Source of the DNA: Candidatus Dormiibacterota bacterium
Lineage (GTDB): Bacteria; Chloroflexota; Dormibacteria; Dormibacterales; Dormibacteraceae
DNA: 64,000 nucleotides
NCBI GenBank assembly: GCA_035934385.1
Contig: DASYXY010000030.1
Coordinates: forward strand, 374 to 64,373
Reading direction: 5' to 3'
The position numbers were made by a program, and so were the translations under genes. Shown in pieces: positions 1,427 to 56,766 of the stretch. The notes beneath the pieces were generated by a model, which did not search any database, had not been told where the DNA came from, and saw only the letters and a list, made by a program, of their open reading frames with translations. Every line of letters starts with the position of its first letter. Positions within the stretch are counted from its first letter, which is position 1.

Positions 1427-1497
1427 TAGCGATTGGAGGAATAGCAGAACCCTGAATTTGACCGAGGTAGCGTCCCATACCGTTTAAGGAGCTAAGG

Positions 1498-2031
1498 ATC
1501 AACGATCAGATCCGCAGCTCCGAGGTGCGGCTGATCGATGACCAGAACAACCAGCTTGGCGTGCTTTCTCTGGACGCCGCGCTGCGCATCGCCAACGAGA
1601 AGGGATTGGACCTCGTCGAGGTGGCGCCGCAAGCGAACCCGCCGGTCTGCCGCCTGATGGACTACGGACGATTCAAGTTCGAGACCGTCAAGCGAGAGAA
1701 GGACCAGCGACGCAAGCAGAACGTCATCAAGCTCAAGGAGATGAAGCTGCGGCCGAAGGTGGCCGAGCACGATTTCCAGACCAAGTTCAAAGGGCTCAGG
1801 CAGTTCCTCGAAGCAGGCGAGAAGGTAAAGGTGACGATTATGTTCAGGGGCCGCGAGATGGTGCATCAGGACATCGGCCGCAAGATCCTCGAGAGGGTCG
1901 CCGATGACGCGCGCTCATTTGCGGTGATCGAGCGGCAGCCGCTGCTCGAGGGCAAGAACCTGTTCATGATCCTCGCGCCGAGCCGGCAGGGCGCGGTCGC
2001 TGTGCCGAAGGAGTCAGCCACCAGTGCCTAA
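1498..2031 (+). CDS. infC: translation initiation factor IF-3, probable non-canonical ATC start
   Basis: The ORF-track product (from GTG 1525) begins inside the conserved IF-3 N-terminus. The in-frame upstream sequence reads INDQIRSSEVRLIDDQNNQLGV..., which matches the IF-3 N-terminus. The frame opens after TAG 1468-1470. ATC 1498 lies 6 nt after AAGGAG (1486-1491). There is no ATG/GTG/TTG in between. Confidence 0.9.
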   Translation: MNDQIRSSEVRLIDDQNNQLGVLSLDAALRIANEKGLDLVEVAPQANPPVCRLMDYGRFKFETVKREKDQRRKQNVIKLKEMKLRPKVAEHDFQTKFKGLRQFLEAGEKVKVTIMFRGREMVHQDIGRKILERVADDARSFAVIERQPLLEGKNLFMILAPSRQGAVAVPKESATSA

Positions 2032-2218
2032 GCTGAAGACCCGCAAGGGAATCGCCAAGCGGGTGCGCGTCACGCGCAACGGCAAGATCGTGCGCCGCAA
2101 CTCCTGGATGAGCCACCGGCTGCACCAGAAGTCGAAGACGCACAAGCGCAAGGACCACACGGAGCAGAAGGTCGCGAAGGGCGACCGCAAGGCCGTGAAG
2201 CGGGCGCTGGGGGTCTAA
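2024..2218 (+). CDS. rpmI: 50S ribosomal protein L35
   Basis: [25 protein letters not shown]... is a typical L35. It sits between infC and rplT. Confidence 0.95.
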
Positions 2219-7308: not shown

Positions 7309-8430
7309 GTGGAGATCCACGTCGAGGACCATCTGCGTGCGCGGCTCGAGCGCGGCGACCACCTGCGCGTCAAGCTCGGGCTCGACCCGACGGCGCCCGA
7401 CATCCATGTCGGACACCTTGTGGTCCTGGACATCCTGCGCGCGTTCCAGGATCACGGGCATACGGTGGTCCTCATCGTCGGCGACTTCACCGCGATGATC
7501 GGCGACCCGAGCGGGCGCTCGGAGACGCGGCCGATCCTCACACGCGAACAGGTCGACGCGAACGCGAAGACCTATTTCGATCAGATCTTCCTGGTGCTCG
7601 ACCGCGACAAGACGGAGGTCCACGGCAATGCCGAGTGGCTCGGGGAGCTGAGCTCCGCCGACGTGCTGCGCCTGCTCGGCAAGGCGACGCTGCAACAGGT
7701 GCTGCAGCGAGAGGATTTCGCCCAGCGCTTGAAGGAAGGCGCGGCCATCGGCGCGCACGAGATCCTCTATCCGTTCAACCAGGCATACGACTCAGTGGCC
7801 GTCCGGGCCGACGTCGAGATCGGCGGCACCGATCAGCTCTTCAACCTGCTGTTCGGCCGCGAGATCCAGAAGGCCTACGGACAGGAGCCGCAGGACATCG
7901 CGGTCTTTCCGCTTCTCGAAGGGCTCGACGGCGAGCAGAAGATGTCGAAGTCGCTCGGGAACTACATCGGCGTGAGCGAAGCGCCGGAGCAGATCTATGG
8001 CAAGACGATGTCCATCCCGGACCGCCTTCTGGAGAAGTACGTGAGGCTGACGTCAGGACTTCAGCATCCCGAGATGAACGCGATGCTCGGGCTGAAGCCT
8101 CGAGATGCCAAGGCGGCGCTGGCTCGCCGTCTCGTGCAGAGGCTGCACGGGGAGGCAGCCGCCGCACACGCCGAACAGGACTTCGAGACAAAGTTCCGGC
8201 GCCGCGAGGTGCCGGAGGATGTGGCCGAACGCAGCGTCGCGGACCTCGAGGACCTGCCAGGCGCTCTGGTGGAAGCGGGGCTGGCGCGCAGCCGAGGCGA
8301 TGCACGGCGTCTCATCGACCAGGGCGGCGTTCGCGTGAACGGAGAGAAGATCGGGCTCGACTGGAAGCTGCGCGACGGCGATGTCGTCCAGGCAGGTAAG
8401 AGAAACTTCGTTCGAATCCGGAAGCGATAG
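7309..8430 (+). CDS. tyrS: tyrosyl-tRNA synthetase (true start may lie a few codons upstream)
   Basis: HVGH (HIGH) and KMSKS motifs plus a C-terminal S4-like domain. The in-frame upstream residues LSFFEDLRERAVEI still resemble the TyrRS N-terminus, but the only start-like codon there is CTG 7276. Confidence 0.9.
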   Translation: MEIHVEDHLRARLERGDHLRVKLGLDPTAPDIHVGHLVVLDILRAFQDHGHTVVLIVGDFTAMIGDPSGRSETRPILTREQVDANAKTYFDQIFLVLDRDKTEVHGNAEWLGELSSADVLRLLGKATLQQVLQREDFAQRLKEGAAIGAHEILYPFNQAYDSVAVRADVEIGGTDQLFNLLFGREIQKAYGQEPQDIAVFPLLEGLDGEQKMSKSLGNYIGVSEAPEQIYGKTMSIPDRLLEKYVRLTSGLQHPEMNAMLGLKPRDAKAALARRLVQRLHGEAAAAHAEQDFETKFRRREVPEDVAERSVADLEDLPGALVEAGLARSRGDARRLIDQGGVRVNGEKIGLDWKLRDGDVVQAGKRNFVRIRKR

Positions 8431-8436
8431 AATCGA

Positions 8437-8450
8437 CGAAAGTATGTTCG
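8437..8450 (+). promoter_or_regulatory. candidate LexA (Cheo-type) box upstream of yebC-ruvCAB, one mismatch
   Basis: CGAAAGTATGTTCG compared with CGAAC-N4-GTTCG. It lies 3 nt downstream of TAGAAT (8428-8433) and 17 nt upstream of the yebC GTG. Confidence 0.4.
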
Positions 8451-8466: not shown

Positions 8467-9225
8467 GTGTCCGGCCATTCGAAATGGGCCGGCATCAAGC
8501 ACAAGAAGGCTGTCGTCGACGCCAAGCGGGGGCAGGCGTTCACGCGCGCAAGCCGTGAGATCACGATCGCGGCGAAGGAGGGCGGCGGCAACCCCGACGG
8601 CAACTTCCGGCTGAGGCTTGCGATCCAGAAGGCGCGCGAGATCAACATGCCGACGGACCGCATCCAGGGCGCGATCAAGCGAGGCACTGGTGAGCTGGCG
8701 GGCGAGAAGCTCGAGGAGATCCGCTACGAGGGCTACGGCCCGGCAGGCGTGGCGATCATGGTCGACGCACTTTCCGACAACCGCAACCGCACGTCGGCGT
8801 CAATCCGCCACCGCTTCTCGAAGGGCGGCGGCAACCTCGCGGAATCGAACGCAGTCGGGTGGATGTTCGAGCGCAAAGGCGCGATCTCGGCTTCGGCCGG
8901 CAAGCAGGACCCGGAGGATGTCGGGCTTGCGGCCATCGAAGCCGGCGCAGACGACGTCCAGGTCGAGGGCAAGTCTGTGGACATCACCACGTCGCCGAAC
9001 TCATTTGAGAGGGTGAAGGCGGCGCTCGAGGCGATGGCCGGCGTGACGATTGACAACGCCGAGGTCACGATGCAGCCCAAACAGACTGTCGCCGTCGACG
9101 AGGTCAAGGCGGCCGCGGTGCTGCGTTTGATGGAATCACTGGAGGAGGACGACGACGTCCAGCAGGTCTACGCGAATTTCGACATCCCAGCCGACGTCCT
9201 TGAAAGAGTCTCAGCACAGGTATGA
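8467..9225 (+). CDS. yebC: YebC/PmpR-family DNA-binding regulator
   Basis: MSGHSKWAGIKHKKAVVDAKRGQAFTR... is the canonical YebC N-terminus. Confidence 0.9.
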   Translation: MSGHSKWAGIKHKKAVVDAKRGQAFTRASREITIAAKEGGGNPDGNFRLRLAIQKAREINMPTDRIQGAIKRGTGELAGEKLEEIRYEGYGPAGVAIMVDALSDNRNRTSASIRHRFSKGGGNLAESNAVGWMFERKGAISASAGKQDPEDVGLAAIEAGADDVQVEGKSVDITTSPNSFERVKAALEAMAGVTIDNAEVTMQPKQTVAVDEVKAAAVLRLMESLEEDDDVQQVYANFDIPADVLERVSAQV

Positions 9226-9373
9226 ATGCAAAGAGTTGATGGGTCGCAAGTAGGCCGGATTCACTCCGGCCGTCTCCTAGCGTGCACTTCGTACGAACCA
9301 CCTCGCGTGGCGGGGCGAAACCCGGGATGGGGCCCCGCGGGGAAGGGCCGCAGCCCTTACCCGCGCTGTTCTA

Positions 9374-9865
9374 ATGCCATCTGACGGGCTGATCGTCGGC
9401 ATCGACCCAGGGCTCGCCGGCACCGGCTTCGCCCTGCTCGCCGAGCCCAACCGCGTGGTGGCCTGCGGCACTGTCTCGACCATCCCCGGCCGCGAGGGCC
9501 CCCGCCTCGTCGCCATCGCGAATCATCTCAGGGCCCTGATCACCGAACACCATCCCTCGGAGGCGTCACTCGAAGAGTTGTTCATGGGTCGCAACGCCAC
9601 GAGCGCGATCGGTGTCGCGCAGGCCCGCGGCGCGATCCTGGCCGTGCTCGAGGAGTGCCACGTTCCGGTGTTCGAGTACAAACCTTCGCAGGTGAAGATC
9701 GTGCTCACCGGCTACGGCAAGGCCGACAAGTCGCAGATCCAGCGCATGCTCGCGGCGCAGGTGCAACTGCCGGCGGGGAAGTTGGACGAGCACGCGCGCG
9801 ATGCGATCGCCATCGCGGTCTGTCATGCAAGAAGCCGGAAGTTCAACGGTGCGCGCGCGCATTGA
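9374..9865 (+). CDS. ruvC: Holliday junction resolvase RuvC
   Basis: IVGIDPGLAGTGFALL..., EELF, and DAIAIAVCHA catalytic-acid motifs. Confidence 0.9.
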   Translation: MPSDGLIVGIDPGLAGTGFALLAEPNRVVACGTVSTIPGREGPRLVAIANHLRALITEHHPSEASLEELFMGRNATSAIGVAQARGAILAVLEECHVPVFEYKPSQVKIVLTGYGKADKSQIQRMLAAQVQLPAGKLDEHARDAIAIAVCHARSRKFNGARAH

Positions 9866-10464
9866 TCGCGCACCTCAGCGGTAAGGTGAGGCGCACGGCT
9901 CCCGACTATGTCGTGCTCGACGTGGGTGGAGTGGGCTACCTGGTCAGCATCGCGGCCGGCACGCGCCAGCAGGTGCCCGCGCCAGGCGGAGCGCTCGAGC
10001 TTCACATCCATACCCACGTGCGCGAGGACCAGCTTTCTCTCTACGGGTTCAGCTCGGCCGAAGAGCTCGAGCTGTTCGAGATGCTGATCGGGGTCGACGG
10101 CGTCGGCCCCAAGGTCGGACTCAACATCCTGAGCGCGGCGAGCATCGAGGTGCTGAAGCGCGCGATCATTGCCGAGGACCCAACGCCGATTCGCCGCGCA
10201 ACCGGAGTGGGTCAGCGCACGGCGGCCAAGGTGATCATCGAGCTGAAGCCGAAGCTCGACGCGGACGAGGCGCTCGCGGTTGTGCCGCGCGCCGTCGCCG
10301 CGTCAGGTGATGGCGTGGTGCCCAAATCGGTCGAGGCGGCGTTGCGCAACCTCGGCTTCTCCCCTCAGGAGGCGCGACTCGGCCTGGAAGCAGTTGACTG
10401 GAAGTCGTCTCCGACCAGCGAAGACGCGCTGGCCACTGCGCTGAAGGCGCTGGGCAAGAAGTAG
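9862..10464 (+). CDS. ruvA: Holliday junction helicase subunit RuvA
   Basis: TTG 9862 (TTGA overlap with the ruvC stop) gives LIAHLSGKVRR...YVVLDVGGVGY, the canonical RuvA N-terminus. The longer ORF-track version (9655) overlaps ruvC. Confidence 0.9.
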   Translation: MIAHLSGKVRRTAPDYVVLDVGGVGYLVSIAAGTRQQVPAPGGALELHIHTHVREDQLSLYGFSSAEELELFEMLIGVDGVGPKVGLNILSAASIEVLKRAIIAEDPTPIRRATGVGQRTAAKVIIELKPKLDADEALAVVPRAVAASGDGVVPKSVEAALRNLGFSPQEARLGLEAVDWKSSPTSEDALATALKALGKK

Positions 10465-11481
10465 ATGAGCACCGAGGATCGCGTCGTGGACGCGCGGGTT
10501 GACGACGAACAGTACGACCTGACGCTGCGCCCGCGCACTCTGTCCGAGTATGTCGGGCAGGCGCAGGTGCGCGAGAACCTCGGCATCCTTCTCGAGGCCG
10601 CGCGGCGCAGAGGCGAGCCCGTGGAGCACGTGCTCCTCTGCGGTCCGCCAGGTCTCGGCAAGACGACGCTCGCCCACATCATCGCCAACGAGCTCGGTGT
10701 CGCCATCAAGGTCAGCTCTGGCCCGGCCATCGACCACCAGGGCGCGCTGGGGTCGATCCTGCTGAACCTCTCGACTCGCGACGTGTTCTTCATCGACGAA
10801 ATACATCGCCTCAACAGCGTGGTCGAGGAATCGCTCTATCCCGCGCTGGAGGACTTTCGCTTCGACGCCGTGCTGGGCAAGGGTGTGGGGGCGAGCGCGG
10901 CAACCCTGCCTCTGCCGCATTTCACGTGCGTCGGCGCCACCACGCGCCAGGGCCTGCTCAGCGGGCCGCTGCGCGATCGCTTCGGCGCCGTGTACCGGCT
11001 CGACTTCTATTCGAAGGCCGAGCTGGAAAGCATCGTGCGGCGGTCGGCGCGCATCCTCGATATCGAGATCCACGAGGAGGCGGTTTCAGAGATCGCCCGG
11101 CGCGCGCGCGGCACACCCCGAATCGCCAACCGCTTGCTGAGACGTGTGCGGGACTACGCGCAGGTGCGTGGCGACGGACGCGCCACGGTCGAGGCGACCC
11201 GCGCCGGCCTCGCGATGCTCGACATCGACGAGATCGGCCTCGAGCCACTCGACCGCAGGCTGCTGGAGACGCTTATCAAGAAGTTCAAAGGCGGTCCAGT
11301 GGGCCTGGACACCATCGCGACCTCGCTGTCGGAGGAGCCCGAGACGATCGAGGACGTACATGAGCCGTACCTGATCCAGATCGGGTTCATGGCTCGCACC
11401 GCGCGCGGGCGGGTGGCCACCGACCTGGCCTATGAGCACCTCGGGGAGCAGCCCCCGCAGACCCAGGCGCGCCTACTCTAA
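10465..11481 (+). CDS. ruvB: Holliday junction helicase RuvB
   Basis: Walker [36 protein letters not shown]. Confidence 0.95.
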
Positions 11482-38550: not shown

Positions 38551-39612
38551 GTGAACCTGCCGAACGCGCTGACCGTCAGCAGGTTGGTCGCGATCCCGCC
38601 GCTGATGTACCTCCTGCTCGCGCGGTTTGATTATCACGACCAGGTCGCGGCTGCGGTCTTCGTGGTGTTCTCACTCACTGACACCATGGACGGCCAGATC
38701 GCGCGCCGGCGGGGCACCGTGAGCGACCTGGGGAAGTTCCTCGACCCGTTGGCGGACAAACTCTTTGTCCTCTCGGTGCTGATCGTCCTCGTCCAGGAAC
38801 GCCTGATCGCAGCGTGGGTGGTGGTCGTGATCTTCTCGCGAGAGCTGCTGATCACGCTGCTGCGCACCGCCGCCGCCGGTCGAGGCACTGTGATCGCGGC
38901 CGCGCCGCTGGGCAAGACGAAGACGGTGACGCAGGTCGCCGCGGTGACGCTGCTAATCCTGCAGCGGCCTTATCCGTGGCTCGCACTGCCGGCGACGCTT
39001 GCGGTCGCGTTCGCGGTGCTGTTCACGATCTCGAGCGGTCTCGACTACATGTGGCGGTGGCGTCATGTGCTGGTGGCCGGCGACCCGCCGCCCGCCGGTT
39101 CTTCGGTTGAGCCGGCGGCACGCGAGCTGGGTGGAGTGCTCGAGGAGACTGGCCTCACGCTGGCGCTGGCGGAGTCCTGCACCGGCGGGCTGCTGGCAGC
39201 CCTCATCACCGATGTTCCAGGCAGCTCCGGCTATTTCCTTGGTGGCGTGGTGGCTTATTCGAACTCCGCCAAGGAGAAGCTGCTGGGGGTCGCCGGCAAG
39301 CTCCTCGACGAGCACGGAGCCGTTAGCGCCGAGGTCGCCGAAGCGATGGCAAGTGGCGCGCGGGCCCGCTTCGGGACGGCGCTGGCCGCGGGCGTCACGG
39401 GCATCGCAGGCCCCGACGCGGACGGCACCGACAAGCCTGTGGGCCTGACCTACGTCGCGGTGGCCTCGCCTTCGCGAACGTCCAGCCGCGAGTTCACGTT
39501 TCACGGCGATCGGTGGGCCAACCGGCGCCAGGCGGCCCTGGAGGCGCTCGGAATGCTTGTCGAGGCGGCACGCTCGGTCGCCGCGACGCAAGGCGCGGTA
39601 AAGACTGCTTGA
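38551..39612 (+). CDS. pgsA: fusion protein: CDP-diacylglycerol--glycerol-3-phosphate 3-phosphatidyltransferase (PgsA) + CinA C-terminal (PncC-type NMN amidohydrolase) domain
   Basis: Residues ~1-185 carry the CDP-alcohol phosphatidyltransferase motif DTMDGQIARRRGTVSDLGKFLDPLADK and TM spans. Residues ~195-353 read LALAESCTGGLLAALITDVPGSS...VAYSNSAKEKLLGV...GVTGIAGP, the CinA_C/PncC signature. Single uninterrupted ORF. Confidence 0.8.
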   Translation: MNLPNALTVSRLVAIPPLMYLLLARFDYHDQVAAAVFVVFSLTDTMDGQIARRRGTVSDLGKFLDPLADKLFVLSVLIVLVQERLIAAWVVVVIFSRELLITLLRTAAAGRGTVIAAAPLGKTKTVTQVAAVTLLILQRPYPWLALPATLAVAFAVLFTISSGLDYMWRWRHVLVAGDPPPAGSSVEPAARELGGVLEETGLTLALAESCTGGLLAALITDVPGSSGYFLGGVVAYSNSAKEKLLGVAGKLLDEHGAVSAEVAEAMASGARARFGTALAAGVTGIAGPDADGTDKPVGLTYVAVASPSRTSSREFTFHGDRWANRRQAALEALGMLVEAARSVAATQGAVKTA

Positions 39613-39637
39613 CCTCCGAACACCTGTTCGATACTAT
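39609..39637 (+). promoter_or_regulatory. recA promoter with embedded LexA box
   Basis: TTGACC - 17 nt - TACTAT. The spacer contains a perfect CGAACACCTGTTCG (39617-39630). AGGAGG lies 8 nt before TTG 39726. Confidence 0.75.
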
Positions 39638-39725: not shown

Positions 39726-40769
39726 TTGGAAAAGGAAAAGGCACTCGACACCGCGCTCGCGCAGATCACGAAGAGCTACGGCAAGGGCGCGATCATGAAG
39801 CTCGGCGAACAGGCGGCGCAGCGGGAGATCACGGTCATCCCGACCGGCGCCCTGCTGCTCGACCTGGCGCTGGGAGTGGGGGGCATTCCGCGCGGCCGGG
39901 TCACGGAGCTGTACGGACCCGAGTCGGCCGGCAAGACCACGCTCGCTCTTCACGTCATCGCCGAGGCGCAGAAGCAGGGCGGCGTGGCGGCTTTCATCGA
40001 CGCCGAGCACGCGCTCGACCCCCTCTATGCATCGCGCATCGGAGTGAAGATCGATGACCTGCTCATCAGCCAGCCCGATACAGGGGAGCAGGCGCTCGAG
40101 ATCGTCGAGGTGCTGGTGCGCTCGAATGCCGTCGACGTGATCGTCATCGACTCGGTCGCGGCTCTCGTGCCGAAAGCCGAGATCGAAGGTGAGATGGGCG
40201 ACGCGCACGTCGGGCTCCAGGCGCGGCTCATGTCCCAGGCGCTGCGCAAGCTGACCGCCGCGATCTCGAAATCCAACTGTTCGGTGGTCTTCCTCAACCA
40301 GCTGCGGGAGAAGGTCGGGATCATGTTCGGCAACCCCGAGACGCAGCCGGGAGGTCGAGCGCTGAAGTTCTACTCCTCGGTTCGCCTCGACATCCGCAAG
40401 GTCGAGGTGATCAAGAACGGGCTCGACTCGGTGGGCGCACGGGTCAAGGTGAAGGTGGTCAAGAACAAGGTCGCTCCGCCGTTCCGAGCCGCCGAGTTCG
40501 ACATCCTGTTCAACGAAGGCATCTCGCGCGAGGGCTCGCTCATCGACGCGGCTCTCGAGTACGGGATCTTCGACAAGAGCGGAACGTGGATGTCCTACGG
40601 CGACCAGCGCCTCGGGCAGGGGCGAGAGAACGTCCGCAACTACCTGCGCGAGAACCCGACGCTTGCCGCTGAGATCGAGGCCAAGGTCCGCGAGACCGCG
40701 GCCGGAGGTCCGGCTCCGGCCAAGGTCGTCTCGATGAAGGTTGCATCCGGTGGCGGGGAGGAGTTCTAG
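39726..40769 (+). CDS. recA: recombinase RecA
   Basis: GPESAGKTT Walker [11 protein letters not shown], canonical RecA throughout. Confidence 0.95.
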
Positions 40770-51741: not shown

Positions 51742-53087
51742 TCGCCACTAGAAAACCTCGCGAGAGGGCGTACCTGGTCGGGATCGTGCTCCCGGGCGCC
51801 ACGGAAGACGTGGTGCGGGAGCAGATGTCAGAGCTCGCGGAGCTCGCGCGCACGGCCGGCGCCGAGGTCGTTGGCACTGACCTCCAGCGCCGCTCCGAGA
51901 TCGAGCCGTCGCATTTCATCGGCGCTGGAAAGGTCGACACGCTGCGCGAGATGGTGCTCGAGGGCGCATTCGACATGCTCGTGTGCAACGAGGATCTGAG
52001 CCCACGACAGCAGCGCAACCTCGAGGGTTCGCTTAAGGTCCGCGTGTTCGATCGCACCGAGGTCATCCTCGAGATCTTCGCCCTGCATGCGCGGACGCAC
52101 GAGGGTCGTCTCCAGGTCGAGGCGGCGCGACTGCATCACCTGCTGCCCCGCCTGATCGGCGCCTACTCATACGACCGCCAGGTCGGCGGCATGCGTGGTG
52201 GTGTGGGCGCGCGTGGTGGCCCAGGAGAGCAGCAGATCGAGACCGAGCGCCGGCGCATCCGCAAGCGGATCCGTGACCTGGATCGCGAGATCGAGCAGGT
52301 GCGTGGCCAGCGCCAGCAGCAGCGCACGGGCCGGCGACGCGCGGAGCTGCAGACCGCAGCGATCGTCGGCTACACCAATGCCGGCAAGTCGACGCTTCTC
52401 AACGCACTTACCGGCGCACGCGTGCGCGCGGAGCACAAGCTCTTTGCCACCCTCGACCCGACCACTCGCCGGCTCGACCTGCCCACCGGCCGGCAGGTGC
52501 TGTTGACCGACACCGTCGGTTTCATCCAGAAGCTGCCCACCGACCTCGTCGCGGCATTCCGAGCCACGCTCGAAGAGGTCACCCAGGCCGACATCGTCAT
52601 CCAGGTGCTCGACGCGAGCTCGCCCGCGGTGAAGGACCAGGCCGCGACCGTGGAGAAGGAGCTGGCCGAGCTGGGCGCCGAGGGCAAGCCGAGAGTGGTG
52701 GCGCTGAACAAGGTCGACCTGCTCGGTCCGGCGCAGCGACGCCGAGTGGTCGCGGCGGTGGCCGAGCGCTACCCGGCGGTGGTTGCGATCTCCGCCATCA
52801 ATCGTGGTGGCTTCGCGCCGCTGCTGGCGGCGATCGACGGGGCGAGCCGTGGCGAGACCGTCAGTCTCGAGCTCCTCGTGCCGTACGGCAGCGAGAGCGT
52901 GCTGGCTTCACTCCGCCGGATCGGCGGGGTGGAAAAGACCGAGTACGACGACCGGGGCACCCGCGCCTGGGGCTGGGCCCCCCGCCACGCCGCCGCCCGC
53001 TTTGAGCCCTACAGGAGCCCTACAAGCGTCTCCGCTGGGGTCAGCGGAACATCCGGATCACGCCGCGGACGACGCCGACAAGGCTGA
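51738..53087 (+). CDS. hflX: GTPase HflX, non-canonical CTG start
   Basis: The conserved N-terminus ERAYLVGIV lies upstream of the first canonical start (GTG 51786). CTG 51738 overlaps the dapL stop as CTGA. G domain GYTNAGKSTLLNALTG, DTVGF, NKVD. Confidence 0.9.
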   Translation: MIATRKPRERAYLVGIVLPGATEDVVREQMSELAELARTAGAEVVGTDLQRRSEIEPSHFIGAGKVDTLREMVLEGAFDMLVCNEDLSPRQQRNLEGSLKVRVFDRTEVILEIFALHARTHEGRLQVEAARLHHLLPRLIGAYSYDRQVGGMRGGVGARGGPGEQQIETERRRIRKRIRDLDREIEQVRGQRQQQRTGRRRAELQTAAIVGYTNAGKSTLLNALTGARVRAEHKLFATLDPTTRRLDLPTGRQVLLTDTVGFIQKLPTDLVAAFRATLEEVTQADIVIQVLDASSPAVKDQAATVEKELAELGAEGKPRVVALNKVDLLGPAQRRRVVAAVAERYPAVVAISAINRGGFAPLLAAIDGASRGETVSLELLVPYGSESVLASLRRIGGVEKTEYDDRGTRAWGWAPRHAAARFEPYRSPTSVSAGVSGTSGSRRGRRRQG

Positions 53088-53667
53088 CATTGCTGGTGAC
53101 GATCGGCTCGTAGGCCGGGTTCTCGGCGATGAGCTTGACGTGGCCGTTGCCTCGCTCGAAGCGCTTGACCGTGGCGTCGTTGTCGACCAAGGCGACGACG
53201 ATCGTCCCGTTGGTCGCCTCCTGCTGCGGCTTCACGAGCACCAGGTCGCCGTCGAGGATGCCGGCGTTGATCATGCTGTCGCCCCGCACCCGCAGGAGGA
53301 AGAACCCGTCCTGGGCCAGTTCGGCCGAGAGGAGGACATGGTCCTCGATGTTCTGCTCGGCGAGGATAGGGGCGCCGGCGGCGACGTGGCCGACGATGGG
53401 CACCGAGACCGCGTTGCGGCGCTGCTTGTCGACGCCCTCGTCCTGCACGAGCTGAACCGTGCGCGACTTGCTGGGGTCACGCCTGATCAGGCCGCGGCGT
53501 TCGAGCTGGTTCAGGTGGTTGTGGACGGTGGAGCTGGAGCTCAAGCCCACCGCCTCGCCGATCTCACGCACGCTCGGGGGGTAGTTGCGAACCTTGTTCT
53601 GGTAGCGGATGTACTCGAGGATCCTGGCCTGCCGGTCGGTTAGTTGATCGGTCAATTTGGATGTCAT
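53041..53667 (-). CDS. lexA: LexA repressor
   Basis: ATG 53667 gives MTSKLTDQLTDRQARILEYI...PPSVREIGEAVGL. Contains the cleavage site VAAG and the S24 peptidase motifs GDSM and K(RFE). Confidence 0.9.
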   Translation of the reverse strand: MTSKLTDQLTDRQARILEYIRYQNKVRNYPPSVREIGEAVGLSSSSTVHNHLNQLERRGLIRRDPSKSRTVQLVQDEGVDKQRRNAVSVPIVGHVAAGAPILAEQNIEDHVLLSAELAQDGFFLLRVRGDSMINAGILDGDLVLVKPQQEATNGTIVVALVDNDATVKRFERGNGHVKLIAENPAYEPIVTSNVSLVGVVRGVIRMFR

Positions 53668-53707
53668 CTCCGTGTGGTTTTGAAGTTCCGGGAGGTCAAC
53701 CGGGGCC

Positions 53708-53747
53708 ATGCTAGCACGCCGGCCACCGGAGTGCAAACCTTTGTTCG
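53708..53747 (-). promoter_or_regulatory. lexA promoter with overlapping near-consensus LexA box
   Basis: Minus strand: TTGCAC (53736-53731) - 17 nt - TAGCAT (53713-53708). CGAACAAAGGTTTG (53747-53734, one mismatch) overlaps the -35. Confidence 0.55.
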
Positions 53748-53752
53748 ATGTC

Positions 53753-53797
53753 TTGACAACCGAACGCCCGTTCGCTATGGTACCGAACGCATGTACG
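53753..53797 (+). promoter_or_regulatory. SOS-controlled promoter of the LysM gene: two LexA boxes
   Basis: TTGACA (53753-53758) - 17 nt - TATGGT (53776-53781). A perfect CGAACGCCCGTTCG (53761-53774) fills the spacer. A second box, CGAACGCATGTACG (53784-53797), covers the ATG. Only 9 nt separate the -10 from the ATG. Confidence 0.7.
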
Positions 53798-54111
53798 CCG
53801 CCGGACTTGCCACCCGACCCCTGCGCTCCGCTCACCGCGGTGGCGGCCGCGTGCACGGGCTCGGGCGCTGGGTGCTGGTGACGGGCGCGCTGCTAGGAGC
53901 GAGCCTGGCGCTGGCGCGGGTGGCTGCCGGCGATACGGCGCCCGTGCAACGGGTGGTGGTGCAGCCTGGCGACACTCTGTGGTCGATCGCGGCTGCCCGC
54001 TACCCGGCTGACGACCCACGCGAGCGGGTGGACGCCATCGAGAGGCTGAACGGGCTGGCAAGCCCGACGATCGTGGTGGGGGAGACTCTGCTTCTGCCGC
54101 CCGGCACCTGA
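53791..54111 (+). CDS. membrane-anchored LysM-domain protein (ChiZ-like position, divergent from lexA)
   Basis: ATG 53791. TM segment WVLVTGALLGASLALA, then LysM VVVQPGDTLWSIAAARY...IERLNGL...IVVGETLLLP. Confidence 0.8.
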   Translation: MYAAGLATRPLRSAHRGGGRVHGLGRWVLVTGALLGASLALARVAAGDTAPVQRVVVQPGDTLWSIAAARYPADDPRERVDAIERLNGLASPTIVVGETLLLPPGT

Positions 54112-54132
54112 CCCCTCGTTAGGATCGGCGCC

Positions 54133-54381
54133 ATGGTTGATGTCGTCCTGGTCACGCGTAAGGGTTGTCACCTCTGCGACGACGCCCTCCGCCTCCTCCG
54201 CGAGCTTGGCGTCGAGCCTCACCTCGCCGACGTTGATGCCGACCACGCGCTGTTCCAGCGCTACGACTGGCGCGTCCCCGTGGTGCTGGTTGATGGCGTG
54301 CCAGCGGCCGAGGGACTGATCACCCGCGCCCAGCTGCTGGCGGTCTTTGGCCGGTCGGGAGGGGGTCCGAACGCCGCCTGA
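54133..54381 (+). CDS. glutaredoxin-like protein (DUF836/YruB type)
   Basis: 82 aa, VVLVTRKGCHLCDDA (CxxC) ... VPVVLVDG. Confidence 0.75.
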   Translation: MVDVVLVTRKGCHLCDDALRLLRELGVEPHLADVDADHALFQRYDWRVPVVLVDGVPAAEGLITRAQLLAVFGRSGGGPNAA

Positions 54382-54445
54382 CCCCACAGGCAATGCTTTC
54401 GATAATGACTGCTAAAGAAAGCCTGAGTTCGAGCGGGGATCCGTT

Positions 54446-54503
54446 CGTTTGTATACAAACGAGTTGAACAGTGGCCTCTGAATTGCGCCTTTGTATACAA
54501 ACG
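54446..54503. repeat. two copies of an AT-rich palindrome 42 bp apart
   Basis: CGTTTGTATACAAACG (54446-54461, perfect 16-bp palindrome) and TTTGTATACAAACG (54490-54503). They lie in the convergent gap between the glutaredoxin-like gene and the 121-aa SOS gene, in the most AT-rich patch of the window. Confidence 0.9.
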
Positions 54504-54530
54504 CCGAGATTCGCATCGAGCGGGCTCCGG

Positions 54531-54896
54531 TCAGGCCGAGCGCTCCAGGACCGGCTGGGCGTCAAGTCCCCGCAGGAACACCTCGAGCGGCAGCGCCGCC
54601 GATTCGAAGTCGGCTCGCAGCAGCTCGAGGTCGGCGCCAGCCTGGTTCAGGCCGGCGATGGCCAGCTCGGCCGTGCGCAGCGCCTGGTCGACGTAGCCCA
54701 CCAGAGCCTCCTCAGGCCGCCCGGCGGCCGCCTCGCCGTCCCAGGCTTCCCGGACGCCCTCGGCCAGGCTCTGGAGCCTGGAGACGCCGCTGATGGCCAG
54801 CGAGCGCTCGGACGGTTCCGCCAGCAGGCGGTCGACGACCTCCGCAAACGTGCGGAGCAGCCGCCGCAAACGGACCTGGGTCGCCAGCGTACGCAT
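54531..54896 (-). CDS. hypothetical all-helical 121-aa protein, LexA-controlled
   Basis: Strong GC3 on the minus strand, Ala/Leu/Glu/Arg-rich. No family recognised. SOS promoter directly upstream. Confidence 0.6.
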   Translation of the reverse strand: MRTLATQVRLRRLLRTFAEVVDRLLAEPSERSLAISGVSRLQSLAEGVREAWDGEAAAGRPEEALVGYVDQALRTAELAIAGLNQAGADLELLRADFESAALPLEVFLRGLDAQPVLERSA

Positions 54897-54907
54897 GTTC
54901 GAGATGT

Positions 54908-54936
54908 ATTGTAGCCGAACGGGTGTTCGCAGGCAA
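54908..54936 (-). promoter_or_regulatory. SOS promoter of the 121-aa gene (leaderless-type)
   Basis: Minus strand: TTGCCT - 17 nt - TACAAT. The spacer holds a perfect CGAACACCCGTTCG (54929-54916). 11 nt separate the -10 from ATG 54896. Confidence 0.7.
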
Positions 54937-54985
54937 GAGGCGCCGGGTTACGTTAACTGCCCTCTTCCCCGCCGCTCGGAGCCGG

Positions 54986-55567
54986 CTATGGAGCGAAGAT
55001 GCGGCACAGGCTCCCCGCCAGCGTGTCCGCGTCCGCGCCGGGATGGGTCAGGAAGTACGACACCGCTTCGTTGACCGCGCCGACCACCGCCCGGCCGAAG
55101 ATGACCGGGTCCTTGTCGGCGTAGAAAGAGTCGTGTGAGGTCGCATGCCGGACCTCTTCCGCCACCGCCGCCGCGAACCGGCCCTGGACCTCGTGGCGCA
55201 CCTCATCGACCGCCGCGCTCAAACCGACCGATTCGACGATCAGCAGCCTCGCGACGGTCGGGCGCTCGAAGCAGCCCACGACGAAGCGGGTGATGCCGAG
55301 GCGCAGCCGCTCGTGGTGGTCGTGTCCGGTCGCCGCAGCGGCCAGCACATCGCGGATCAGCTCGCCGCCTTCGGCGAGCAGGACCTCGCGGAAGCAGTGC
55401 TCCTTGGACGTGAAGTGCTCGTAGAAAGCCGACTTAGACATGCGCGCCCGCGCTACTACCGCGCCGACTGCCGTCTCCTCGTAACCGCGCTCTGCGAAGA
55501 GCTCAAGCGCGGCGTCCAACAGCCGGCGGCGCCGGTGGTCGAGCCGCGCGGCGCCGGCTGCTCGCAT
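54986..55567 (-). CDS. TetR/AcrR-family transcriptional regulator
   Basis: ATG 55567 gives MRAAGAARLDHRRRRLLDAALELFAERGYEETAVGAVVARARMSKSAFYEHF (HTH). It starts 5 nt after the acyl-CoA dehydrogenase stop. Confidence 0.85.
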   Translation of the reverse strand: MRAAGAARLDHRRRRLLDAALELFAERGYEETAVGAVVARARMSKSAFYEHFTSKEHCFREVLLAEGGELIRDVLAAAATGHDHHERLRLGITRFVVGCFERPTVARLLIVESVGLSAAVDEVRHEVQGRFAAAVAEEVRHATSHDSFYADKDPVIFGRAVVGAVNEAVSYFLTHPGADADTLAGSLCRIFAP

Positions 55568-55572
55568 CCGGA

Positions 55573-56766
55573 CTAGTCCCGCGCCAGCGCGCGGGAAATC
55601 ACCAGGCGCTGGATCTCCGAGGTGCCCTCGAAAAGGGTGTAGATCTTGGCGTCGCGGTGCCATTTCTCCACGGGGAAGTCGCGGATGTAGCCGTAGCCGC
55701 CGCAGATCTGGATCGCCTGCTCGGTGACCTTGACCGCCACCTCGCCGGCCTTCAGCTTGGCCATCGATCCTTCCGCCTTCTTGAACTCGCCGCCGCTGCG
55801 GCCCTCCCAGAGCGCGCGCCAGATGAGCGCGCGAGTGGCCTCGATCTCGGTCGCCATGTCGGCGAGCATGAAGGCGATCGCCTGGTTCTCGATGAGCGCC
55901 CGACCAAACTGTTTGCGCTCCTTCGCGTAATGGAGCGCGAACTCGAAGGCGGCGCGGGCGATGCCGAGGGCCTGCGCACCTACGATGGGGCGTGACAGCT
56001 CGAAAGTCTTCAAAGCCACCGACGACCGCTGGTGTGAGCCCTCGCGCGCGCGTGCCAGCTTGGCCTCGAGCTTCTCGACGCCGCCGAGCACGTTCTCGAG
56101 TGGGATCGTGCAGTCCTCCAGGAGCACCTCGGCGGTGTGGGAGGCGCGGATGCCCATCTTCTTTTCCTTCTTGCCCTGGCGGATGCCCTTGGTCCCAGGC
56201 GGCACCACGAAGCTCGCCTGGCCGCGCGTGCCGAGCTCTGGCTCGACCGCGGCGACCACGACATGGACGTCCGCGATTCCTCCGTTGGTGATGAAGATCT
56301 TCTGACCGTTGATCACCCAGTCGCCGTTCTTGCGCACGGCGCGGGTCTTCATCGACGACACATCCGAACCCGCGTCGGGCTCGGTCACGCAGAAGGCGCC
56401 GAGCGCCGGCTTGTCAACGGTGCCGTAACAGGCCGGGATCCACGTCGCGATCTGCTCCGGCGTGCCCTGCGAGAAGATCGCCGCGATTGGCAGCCCCGTG
56501 CCCTGGATCGCAAGCGCGATGCCGGCACAGCCCCACGTGAGCTCTTCAGACACCAGCGCCGGCATGATGCCGGTCGAGTCGGCGTACGTCTGCTGGAGGA
56601 AATCCACGCCGTACAGCCCGACCTCGGCCGCCTTCTTGACCACCGGCCAGGGGAACTCCTCGGTCTCGTCGTAATGGGCCGCCACCGGGCGGATCTCCTT
56701 CTCCGCGAAGGCGTGGACCCAATCCCGGATCTCACGCTGCTCGTCCGTCAGCTCGAAAGAAACCAT
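55573..56766 (-). CDS. acyl-CoA dehydrogenase
   Basis: ATG 56766 gives MVSFELTDEQREIRDW.... Contains CVTEPDAGSD and ends GGYGYIRDFPVEKWHRDAKIYTLFEGTSEIQR. Confidence 0.9.
   Translation of the reverse strand: MVSFELTDEQREIRDWVHAFAEKEIRPVAAHYDETEEFPWPVVKKAAEVGLYGVDFLQQTYADSTGIMPALVSEELTWGCAGIALAIQGTGLPIAAIFSQGTPEQIATWIPACYGTVDKPALGAFCVTEPDAGSDVSSMKTRAVRKNGDWVINGQKIFITNGGIADVHVVVAAVEPELGTRGQASFVVPPGTKGIRQGKKEKKMGIRASHTAEVLLEDCTIPLENVLGGVEKLEAKLARAREGSHQRSSVALKTFELSRPIVGAQALGIARAAFEFALHYAKERKQFGRALIENQAIAFMLADMATEIEATRALIWRALWEGRSGGEFKKAEGSMAKLKAGEVAVKVTEQAIQICGGYGYIRDFPVEKWHRDAKIYTLFEGTSEIQRLVISRALARD

Follow-up and report, generated by a model that had tools for sequence, protein, structure and literature searches.

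In described LexA-controlled promoters of Gram-positive bacteria, such as those of dinR/recA and lexA-yneA in Bacillus subtilis and of the mycobacterial lexA-Rv2719c, the repressor site is the Cheo box, GAACn4GTTC, a palindrome of 14 base pairs (bp) with the consensus CGAACRNRYGTTYC (PMC2248561). The operator overlaps the core promoter in these systems, more than one box is present at the most tightly held promoters, and lexA is situated beside a divergent gene for a LysM-domain protein (YneA: PMC13396833). In this study, we analyzed a stretch of 64,000 nucleotides (nt) from a Candidatus Dormibacterota bacterium (contig DASYXY010000030.1; the whole stretch is referred to as the window) in which each of those properties recurs at or near one gene. 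The gene lies on the minus strand at 54531-54896 and encodes a protein of 121 amino acids, for which the name X121 is used here. The palindrome in its promoter is the described Gram-positive LexA site (PMC2248561), and X121 is the only gene with a perfect box in the window that has no known relative. As judged from its sequence, X121 is very probably a LexA-repressed, damage-induced SOS gene of Dormibacterota. Its promoter and coding region are composed of the following features:

54931-54936, minus strand: −35 hexamer TTGCCT (sequence reading and promoter scan)
54916-54929, minus strand: LexA operator 1, a perfect Cheo-type box CGAACACCCGTTCG in the 17-nt spacer (sequence)
54908-54913, minus strand: −10 hexamer TACAAT (sequence reading and promoter scan)
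54888-54901, minus strand: putative LexA operator 2, the variant CGAAC-ATGC-GTACG (CGAACATGCGTACG), over the predicted transcription start and codons 1-3
54531-54896, minus strand: X121 coding sequence, 121 amino acids, with ATG at 54896 and stop at 54531

An earlier note, made from the sequence of the window, had proposed an SOS promoter of this layout, and it was confirmed on the minus strand: TTGCCT is followed by a 17-nt spacer that reads g-CGAACACCCGTTCG-gc, by TACAAT, and by a further 11 nt (acatctcgaac) before ATG 54896. A generic sigma-70 scan of positions 53000-56000 returned three promoter-like sites, compared with 0.1 expected, and the X121 promoter was among them. Exact matches to CGAACNNNNGTTCG occur three times in the 64-kb window versus 0.18 expected, a count reached by none of 100 shuffles, and the three sites are those in the recA promoter (39617), the lexA/LysM intergenic region (53761) and the X121 promoter. 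Each sits within a TTGnnn-17-TAnnnT promoter, in agreement with the claim that the operator-in-spacer layout, with the box in a 17-nt spacer, is common to X121, recA and the LysM gene. Only X121, recA, lexA and the LysM gene have a perfect LexA box in the 64 kb. LexA and the LysM protein were named by Pfam, with lexA located 1 kb from X121, and recA (39726-40769) was recognized by reading its sequence. The probable lexA gene is at 53041-53667. The two promoters with which that of X121 is compared below are:

39609-39637, plus strand: recA promoter TTGACC-17-TACTAT with one perfect box (39617-39630)
53753-53797, plus strand: LysM promoter, composed of TTGACA, a perfect box (53761-53774), TATGGT and the variant CGAACGCATGTACG (53784-53797)

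The operator proved to be conserved well beyond the window. One genome per GTDB species was scanned, which yielded 78 loci with X121, and loci L079-L083 were also compared; for the upstream comparison, the 60-70 nt before the conserved ATG were taken from 71 orthologous loci. The LexA box that the earlier note had described in a single sequence is kept by orthologues across the whole detectable family, as operator 1 is perfect in 63 of the 71 loci, has one mismatch in eight, and is always in the promoter spacer. In 67 loci, the spacer that holds the box measures 17 or 18 nt and separates a TTG-type −35 from a TAnnnT −10, and the −10 motif itself is kept in 70 of the 71. Upstream information content is high only at the −35 TTG, the box half-sites, the −10 and the start-codon block CGAACATGCGTAC, and both the central four bases of box 1 and its flanks vary freely among the ~70 loci. 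A freely varying center between kept half-sites is the signature of a site for a dimeric repressor. Relatives at 35-45% protein identity (L079, L080, L082) also keep the operator arrangement.

A second, imperfect box that was overlooked in the earlier note overlaps the X121 start codon. This box, CGAACATGCGTACG, has one core departure from the consensus, GTAC for GTTC, and covers the codons ATG-CGT-ACG (Met-Arg-Thr). Its information content in the aligned loci equals that of box 1. Codon 2 is CGT in 62 of 69 X121 genes (90%), whereas CGT accounts for 47 of the 1054 remaining arginine codons in those genes (4.5%), and codon 3 leans to ACG or ACT over the otherwise preferred ACC. This bias at codons 2 and 3 indicates constraint at the DNA level and not at the protein level. 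The exact variant CGAACNNNNGTACG was found twice in the window, compared with 0.05 expected, once over the start codon of X121 and once over that of the LysM gene, both being SOS genes. In the latter gene, the two-box layout with the variant CGAACnnATGTACG over its own ATG was present in 58 of 64 related loci. The ATG occupies box positions 8-10 in the LysM gene versus 6-8 in X121, an offset of 2 nt with the 5-4-5 geometry unchanged; therefore, the conserved object is the palindrome and not the start-codon context. In one locus (L083), box 1 is lost and box 2 is retained directly after the −10. Since recA has a single box, with a leader of ~90 nt containing GGAGG ahead of its start at 39726, the two-operator design marks X121 and the LysM gene specifically. 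We consider it probable that the second operator is functional, in which case this GTACG variant box, common to X121 and the LysM gene, shows in compact form how a regulatory site and the N-terminus of a protein can constrain one another.

The earlier note had also described the X121 message as leaderless, and it is on this point that our results depart from it. In sigma-70-type promoters there are usually 6-8 nt from the −10 to the transcription start, and the 11-nt gap in the window exceeds the ~6-8 nt needed for a start at the A of the ATG. The gap is 10-12 nt in 65 of the 70 loci with a placeable −10, and the leaderless spacing of 7 nt was found only in three divergent relatives (L072, L080, L083). 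Based on the usual distance, the transcription start is expected within CGAAC, giving a leader of ~4-5 nt. A tetramer resembling a Shine-Dalgarno (SD) sequence (GGAG, GAGG or AGGA) is present within 20 nt upstream of the start in only 5 of 73 loci. It is more likely, as far as the sequence can indicate, that the X121 message is SD-less with a leader of ~4-5 nt.

Many database entries for the family have three to five extra N-terminal residues (MSNM..., MIPNM...), including P0017, P0028, P0039, P0042, P0065, P0069, P0078, P0081 and others. These extensions start inside or beside the −10 hexamer and very probably result from misannotation, and as M1-R2-T3-L4 is invariant in 36 close relatives, ATG 54896 is the start.

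The open reading frame (ORF) that the earlier note had treated as a gene is conserved in relatives and has a coding signature in them. A total of 647 database proteins match X121 at E ≤ 0.01, the closest named relative being 88% identical and from a Candidatus Dormibacteraeota metagenome-assembled genome (MAG), and the length is exactly 121 codons in 59 of 69 orthologues. The G+C fractions at the three codon positions are 0.81/0.49/0.89, third-position entropy is about 2-fold that of positions 1 and 2, and the median pairwise ratio of nonsynonymous to synonymous substitution rates (dN/dS) is 0.38. An antisense ORF on the plus strand (54471-54914) was rejected as a candidate gene, since the variation at third positions matches the frame of the minus strand and DNA of this G+C content commonly contains long antisense ORFs.

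Nearly all of the 78 loci are labelled Dormibacterota or "Chloroflexi bacterium CF_n", the latter from the same soil study. Dormibacterota is abundant in soils and, to our knowledge, has no cultured member. When 1.84 billion cluster representatives were searched exhaustively by profile, only ~100 clusters were returned (family members, fragments and DUF4116 repeat proteins), and the most distant labelled cluster was again from Dormibacteraeota. No relative of X121 was found among IMG/VR, INPHARED phages or PLSDB plasmids. The best explanation of these sequence distributions is that X121 is a chromosomal core gene of Candidatus Dormibacterota that is confined to the phylum. A mobile origin, as a phage or plasmid accessory gene, was rejected on the basis of the lack of viral and plasmid relatives, the fixed chromosomal synteny, and a sole PHROGs match at E = 0.22. 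Several loci (L022, L023, L026, L042, L051, L057, L072, L076) were deposited under names other than Dormibacterota, with labels that include Verrucomicrobiia, Micrarchaeaceae archaeon, Eisenbacteria, Limnocylindrales, Nitrosopolaris, Nitrosotalea and Acidoferrum. Most of these contigs have the Dormibacterota gene order and neighbor proteins that are 85-95% identical, the identity being 90-95% for those labelled Verrucomicrobiia, Micrarchaeaceae, Nitrosotalea and Eisenbacteria, and they are probably mis-binned or mislabelled. In addition, there are pairs of contigs from the same MAG that each have an X121-lexA region (L053/L056, L025/L065, L059/L066), which suggests strain mixtures in bins and not true duplication.

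The gene order around X121 was kept in ~75 loci: TauE, acyl-CoA dehydrogenase, TetR and X121 reading rightward, then the glutaredoxin-like and LysM genes reading leftward, lexA rightward and hflX leftward. X121 is 0.5-5 kb from lexA in nearly all loci, and this linkage is lost in L072 and L083. Since the whole region is syntenic, the proximity of lexA is only weak evidence of a functional connection. The intergenic distances to either side of X121 differ between loci, and in some genomes, a methyltransferase gene and an unannotated ORF are present upstream of X121.

Modelling by AlphaFold2 predicted the window protein to be an up-down four-helix bundle (predicted local distance difference test score, pLDDT, of 91; predicted TM-score, pTM, of 0.84) with helices at residues 4-26, 28-59, 63-82 and 90-120, and the same four-helix fold was obtained for a 43%-identical relative (pLDDT 90). 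Both models agree with the expectation in the earlier note of an all-helical protein, and a maximum Kyte-Doolittle mean of 0.92 over 19 residues agrees with that of no transmembrane segment. X121 has an isoelectric point (pI) of 4.8, a net charge of −5 (helices 2-4 are each at −3), and no His, Cys or Lys.

An alignment of 50 members, the most divergent at 34% identity, was used to score conservation along the modelled helices. Most of the polar residues shared by at least 80% of members are in helix 1 (R2, T3, T6, Q7, R9, R11, R12, R15 and R23), the others being R40 and W52 in helix 2 and R109 in helix 4. His, Cys, Asp, Glu and Ser are not conserved at any position of the alignment, and this lack of conserved residues of catalytic type makes it unlikely that X121 is an enzyme. 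On a helical wheel, the arginines of helix 1 would be placed opposite a hydrophobic stripe formed by L10/L13/I14/F17/L24. These features of the sequence lead us to favor, with some reserve, the view that X121 is a non-enzymatic binding protein.

The C-terminal tail was modelled with low confidence in both proteins (pLDDT 51-65 in the window protein, 56-62 in the relative) and is coil in the longer relative. Despite this, 141 of 148 members terminate in [ST]A and 133 of the 148 in R[ST]A, which is RSA in X121, and the tail that follows LRGL[DE] has 9-23 residues in nearly all members. A motif that is fixed at the end across a variable linker is typical of a partner that recognizes a terminus. 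The best-known recognition of termini in bacteria is that of C-terminal protease tags of the ClpXP type, and several SOS proteins are cleared in this way.

Searches for known relatives supported the remark of the earlier note that X121 has no motif assignable to a known SOS function. Pfam, NCBIfam, PADLOC and PHROGs searches with the window protein and 50 members gave nothing significant (best PHROGs E = 0.22), with only scattered single-member Pfam matches at E-values of at least 0.006 among the 50. The best PDB match, by single sequence and by family profile, was to a designed protein (E = 0.11). Foldseek searches of PDB and BFVD with the two models returned generic bundles only (best E 0.055-0.3), the neighbors being FAT domains, chemoreceptor sensor domains and designed proteins with TM-scores of ~0.5-0.6. 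Rfam and tRNA/tmRNA scans of the window found nothing, and in the literature we found no paper covering both Dormibacter* and LexA, nor any work on the SOS system of the phylum.

A number of specific identities were tried and rejected. For a DinB/YfiT-like metalloprotein (DinB, DinB_2), the window protein had no match and one of 50 members matched at E = 0.47; the histidine triad of DinB is absent, as X121 has no His and the family no conserved one. A division inhibitor of the YneA/ChiZ type was excluded by the lack of both a LysM match and a membrane segment, and DinI, RecX and PsiB by the lack of any Pfam or NCBIfam match at E ≤ 1-10 among 50 members and of any sequence or fold match in PDB. 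An HEPN toxin would require a conserved His for the R-x(4-6)-H motif, which the family does not have, and gave a Foldseek E of 0.39 and no PADLOC match. Membership of the WXG100/Esx family, whose members are helical hairpins of ~100 residues with W-x-G at the turn, was rejected as W52 is in the middle of helix 2, G54 is not conserved (the consensus is R), and the PDB match to EsxB had an E of 1.1; a WXG motif in AWDGE was also rejected. The RLRRL N-terminus is not a Tat signal, since no hydrophobic region follows and the segment is a bundle helix with pLDDT 95-97, and the ALPLEVF segment is not a β-clamp-binding motif, since it is inside helix 4 at pLDDT >90.

A resemblance to DUF4116 required closer scrutiny. 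Residues 66-93 (YVxxALRTxELAIAGLxQAGADLELL), which run from helix 3 through a loop into helix 4, are similar to the DUF4116 unit YVPEALRTPELCLAAVQQNGxAL, and the X121 profile matches multi-repeat DUF4116 proteins with 3-15 bits per repeat, their significance arising from the summed repeats. Membership of DUF4116 (PF13475) was rejected, as none of 50 members matched at E ≤ 1 and a residue-by-residue check indicated a short-motif resemblance. DUF4116-like matches included P0165, P0196, P0208 and P0212, and DUF4116 is found in long NACHT/STAND-type repeat proteins.

The explanation that we favor begins with the two operators. In undamaged cells, LexA would be bound to both, the site in the spacer excluding RNA polymerase and the second site spanning the transcription start and the first three codons. 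DNA damage would lead to RecA-stimulated self-cleavage of LexA and thereby free the promoter, and the SD-less X121 mRNA, with its predicted leader of ~4-5 nt (none in the few divergent relatives), would undergo leaderless-like translation. The product would be a soluble, acidic, non-enzymatic bundle that binds an anionic partner, which could be a nucleic acid or the acidic surface of a protein, via the conserved, solvent-exposed arginine face of helix 1 (R2, R9, R11, R12, R15, R23) together with R40 and R109. The R-[S/T]-A terminus of its flexible tail would serve for recognition and might be a degron, through which an AAA+ protease keeps X121 short-lived. We tentatively prefer a checkpoint or arrest-type role, tightly repressed and potentially growth-interfering, to that of a repair enzyme, because the double-operator, near-leaderless promoter is shared only with the YneA/ChiZ-like LysM gene. 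In its most speculative form, this explanation proposes a new Dormibacterota-only class of SOS effector, in which a cytoplasmic bundle, silenced by two LexA dimers until DNA is damaged, might transiently bind and block the machinery of division, replication or translation and then be removed via its R-[S/T]-A tag. If true, X121 would be a soluble partner of, or alternative to, the membrane LysM checkpoint protein. Taken as a whole, the explanation of a LexA-controlled core gene for a non-enzymatic binder that acts as a checkpoint-type effector seems to us slightly more probable than not. The proposal in the earlier note of a lineage-specific SOS effector stands with respect to lineage and regulation, given the phylum-confined family and operator 1 kept in 71 loci, and "effector" is still a hypothesis.

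Several points weigh against this explanation. LexA binding, damage induction and the transcription start are predictions from the sequence. Box 2 has the core mismatch GTAC, and the constraint on it could alternatively be on the transcript start or on translation initiation. The dN/dS of 0.38 is only moderate constraint, and the closeness of lexA may reflect a conservative genome and not functional linkage. With regard to the protein, the four-helix bundle fold predicted by the models is too generic to indicate function, the arginine face could make intramolecular or oligomer contacts instead of binding a partner, and the degron reading of the tail, which is drawn only from analogy with ClpXP signals, is doubtful.

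Other roles for X121 also have to be weighed against a checkpoint-type binder. The protein could be a feedback modulator of the SOS switch that binds RecA filaments or LexA and tunes induction or shut-off, in the manner of DinI, RecX or PsiB on RecA, or of DdrR with UmuDAb in Acinetobacter, while being unrelated to them. Lineage-specific small partners of SOS repressors are known, X121 is small, acidic (pI 4.8) and non-enzymatic, its location 0.5-5 kb from lexA in nearly all loci is suggestive, and the operator that it shares with recA and lexA would lead to joint induction. However, X121 has no likeness in sequence or fold to DinI, RecX or PsiB, the linkage to lexA is weak evidence in a neighborhood that is syntenic throughout and is lost in L072 and L083, and repression from two operators would be more typical of harmful late functions, and so we consider a modulator unlikely. 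The same low probability applies, in our opinion, to a nucleic-acid-binding accessory factor whose arginine face holds damaged DNA, single-stranded DNA or RNA in order to protect it, mark it or recruit other factors. This role would suit the SOS context, the eight conserved arginines, of which helix 1 bears six on its exposed face, and the lack of catalytic residues, but the net charge of −5, with helices 2-4 each at −3, is unusual for a DNA binder, no helix-turn-helix, OB or other such domain was detected in Pfam scans, and there were no significant structural neighbors among DNA-binding bundles.

Two further alternatives appear highly improbable. In one, X121 would resemble Tum of coliphage 186 in being an antirepressor under SOS control; upon DNA damage, it would inactivate a non-cleavable repressor, such as the TetR protein encoded upstream, and in this way link the acyl-CoA dehydrogenase operon or a different regulon to the SOS response. 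Small antirepressors controlled by LexA are known, the TetR gene ends 90 nt upstream of the X121 ATG in the window, and it is upstream on the same strand wherever there is sufficient upstream sequence. Nevertheless, the TetR-X121 spacing is 0.5-6 kb, with a methyltransferase gene or unannotated ORF inserted, the distant relatives L079 and L083 have other neighbors, and X121 has no phage or plasmid relatives. In the other alternative there is no damage regulation, the palindromes being bound by another factor or kept for promoter function or translation, and X121 is a housekeeping gene. The departure of box 2 from the consensus is in its favor, but within the window this 14-mer recurs only at recA and lexA besides X121, and the palindrome, which is that of the Gram-positive LexA box (PMC2248561), is kept in ~70 loci with its center and flanks free to vary. 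Of the roles considered, that of a LexA-controlled, checkpoint-type binding protein is the one we tentatively favor for X121.

Our analyses of the region produced additional observations on the genes and repeats beside X121. The start of the LysM gene is probably ATG 53791 (106 amino acids; 53791-54111) and not TTG 53644 of the longest ORF, and in L081 the gene is called at 105 amino acids. A gene for a glutaredoxin-like DUF836 protein (54133-54381, plus strand) is 21 nt downstream of the LysM gene on the same strand, and it is probably co-transcribed with it and also SOS-controlled. In L080, the glutaredoxin-like gene (1434-2099, minus strand) seems by eye to be fused to a GNAT-type acetyltransferase-like C-terminal region (221 amino acids).

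Directly after the X121 stop, on the same strand, ~17 related loci have a LAGLIDADG-like ORF of 165-184 amino acids that is absent from the window. In L081 it is at 9385-9939 (plus strand), 4 nt after the X121 stop, and equivalents are present in L002, L006, L010, L013, L014, L016, L017, L019, L026, L042, L044, L046, L047, L048, L057 and L070. The ORF is frameshifted or fragmentary in a further ~8 loci (L001, L012, L018, L023, L030, L034, L041, L053). It has the motif AGFVDGEGC and a match to Pfam LAGLIDADG_1 at E = 2.6e-4, which is just under the cut-off. It looks like a free-standing homing-endonuclease gene in gain and decay at the 3' end of the SOS unit, where it would be expressed from the SOS promoter. 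In the window, X121 and the glutaredoxin-like gene converge, and the intergenic region between their 3' ends is occupied by a repeat:

54446-54503, no strand assigned: inverted repeat of two TTTGTATACAAA copies with a 14-bp stem and a 30-nt loop (repeat count and fold)

Two TTTGTATACAAA copies occur in the window, compared with 0.04 expected, and they are 42 nt apart. The inverted repeat, which was found in none of 78 related loci and is specific to this genome, folds at −43.3 kcal/mol (z = −3.4), with a terminator-like site found on the plus strand by scanning. The TTGTATACAA palindromes were rejected as a conserved regulatory site, being absent from all 78 related loci checked. The inverted repeat is possibly a terminator acting in both directions, or else a scar where relatives carry the LAGLIDADG-like gene.

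Elsewhere in the window, at 8425-8450 on the plus strand, a LexA-type box with one mismatch, CGAAAGTATGTTCG (8437), lies directly after a −10-like hexamer TAGAAT and upstream of a yebC-like gene, ruvC, ruvA and ruvB (8467-11481; genes identified by sequence reading only). It is a possible additional SOS operator.

Outside recA, lexA and a few repair genes, the content of SOS regulons varies greatly from phylum to phylum, and their lineage-specific members, such as SulA, YneA, SidA, SosA, TisB and DdrR, have repeatedly revealed new couplings between DNA damage and the cell cycle. The comparative evidence for X121 is unusually clean, given ~70 independent loci, a footprint confined to the promoter and operators, and a codon-level trace of operator 2. 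The X121 family is therefore a clearly delimited subject for expression in other hosts, screening for interactions and structural work.

Comparison with known systems helps to delimit what is distinctive about X121. The FAT/PAT-type and chemoreceptor ligand-binding domains that were its structural neighbors are up-down bundles of ~120-135 residues, with TM-scores of 0.5-0.6 versus X121, and FAT domains are peptide-docking modules, which would fit a binder role. However, these matches had Foldseek E-values of 0.055-0.4 and identities of 10-20% and were to eukaryotic or periplasmic proteins, and so represent a generic likeness and not evidence of homology. With respect to DUF4116, a domain of unknown function, X121 holds at most one such unit, and this is inside the bundle. 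YnzC (DUF896) of B. subtilis is a small helical SOS protein of unknown function that is encoded in the lexA-adjacent yneA-yneB-ynzC operon. Both proteins are small, all-helical and SOS-controlled and are encoded beside lexA and a LysM inhibitor, but X121 has no DUF896 or PDB match, and YnzC is a helical hairpin of ~77 residues in contrast to a four-helix bundle of 121.

The SOS division inhibitors (SulA, YneA, ChiZ/Rv2719c, DivS, SosA and SidA) resemble X121 in being small, lineage-specific, LexA-repressed and often encoded near lexA, and the promoter design of X121 is that of the YneA/ChiZ-like LysM gene of this genome. X121 differs from them in being, as modelled, a cytoplasmic four-helix bundle that has no membrane segment and no LysM domain, and no relation to them was found in sequence or fold. 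With the Gram-positive LexA promoters, the X121 promoter has in common the palindrome, its overlap with the core promoter, the presence of more than one box and the lexA/LysM context. Unlike in those cases, the second operator of X121 and the LysM gene is a fixed GTACG half-site variant, which in X121 is within the first three codons, this variant operator is common to two unrelated genes across the whole phylum, and the X121 transcript is predicted to be SD-less with a very short leader. X121 is very probably a lineage-specific SOS gene and as such of a known kind, whereas its protein family and its unusual operator arrangement are new.

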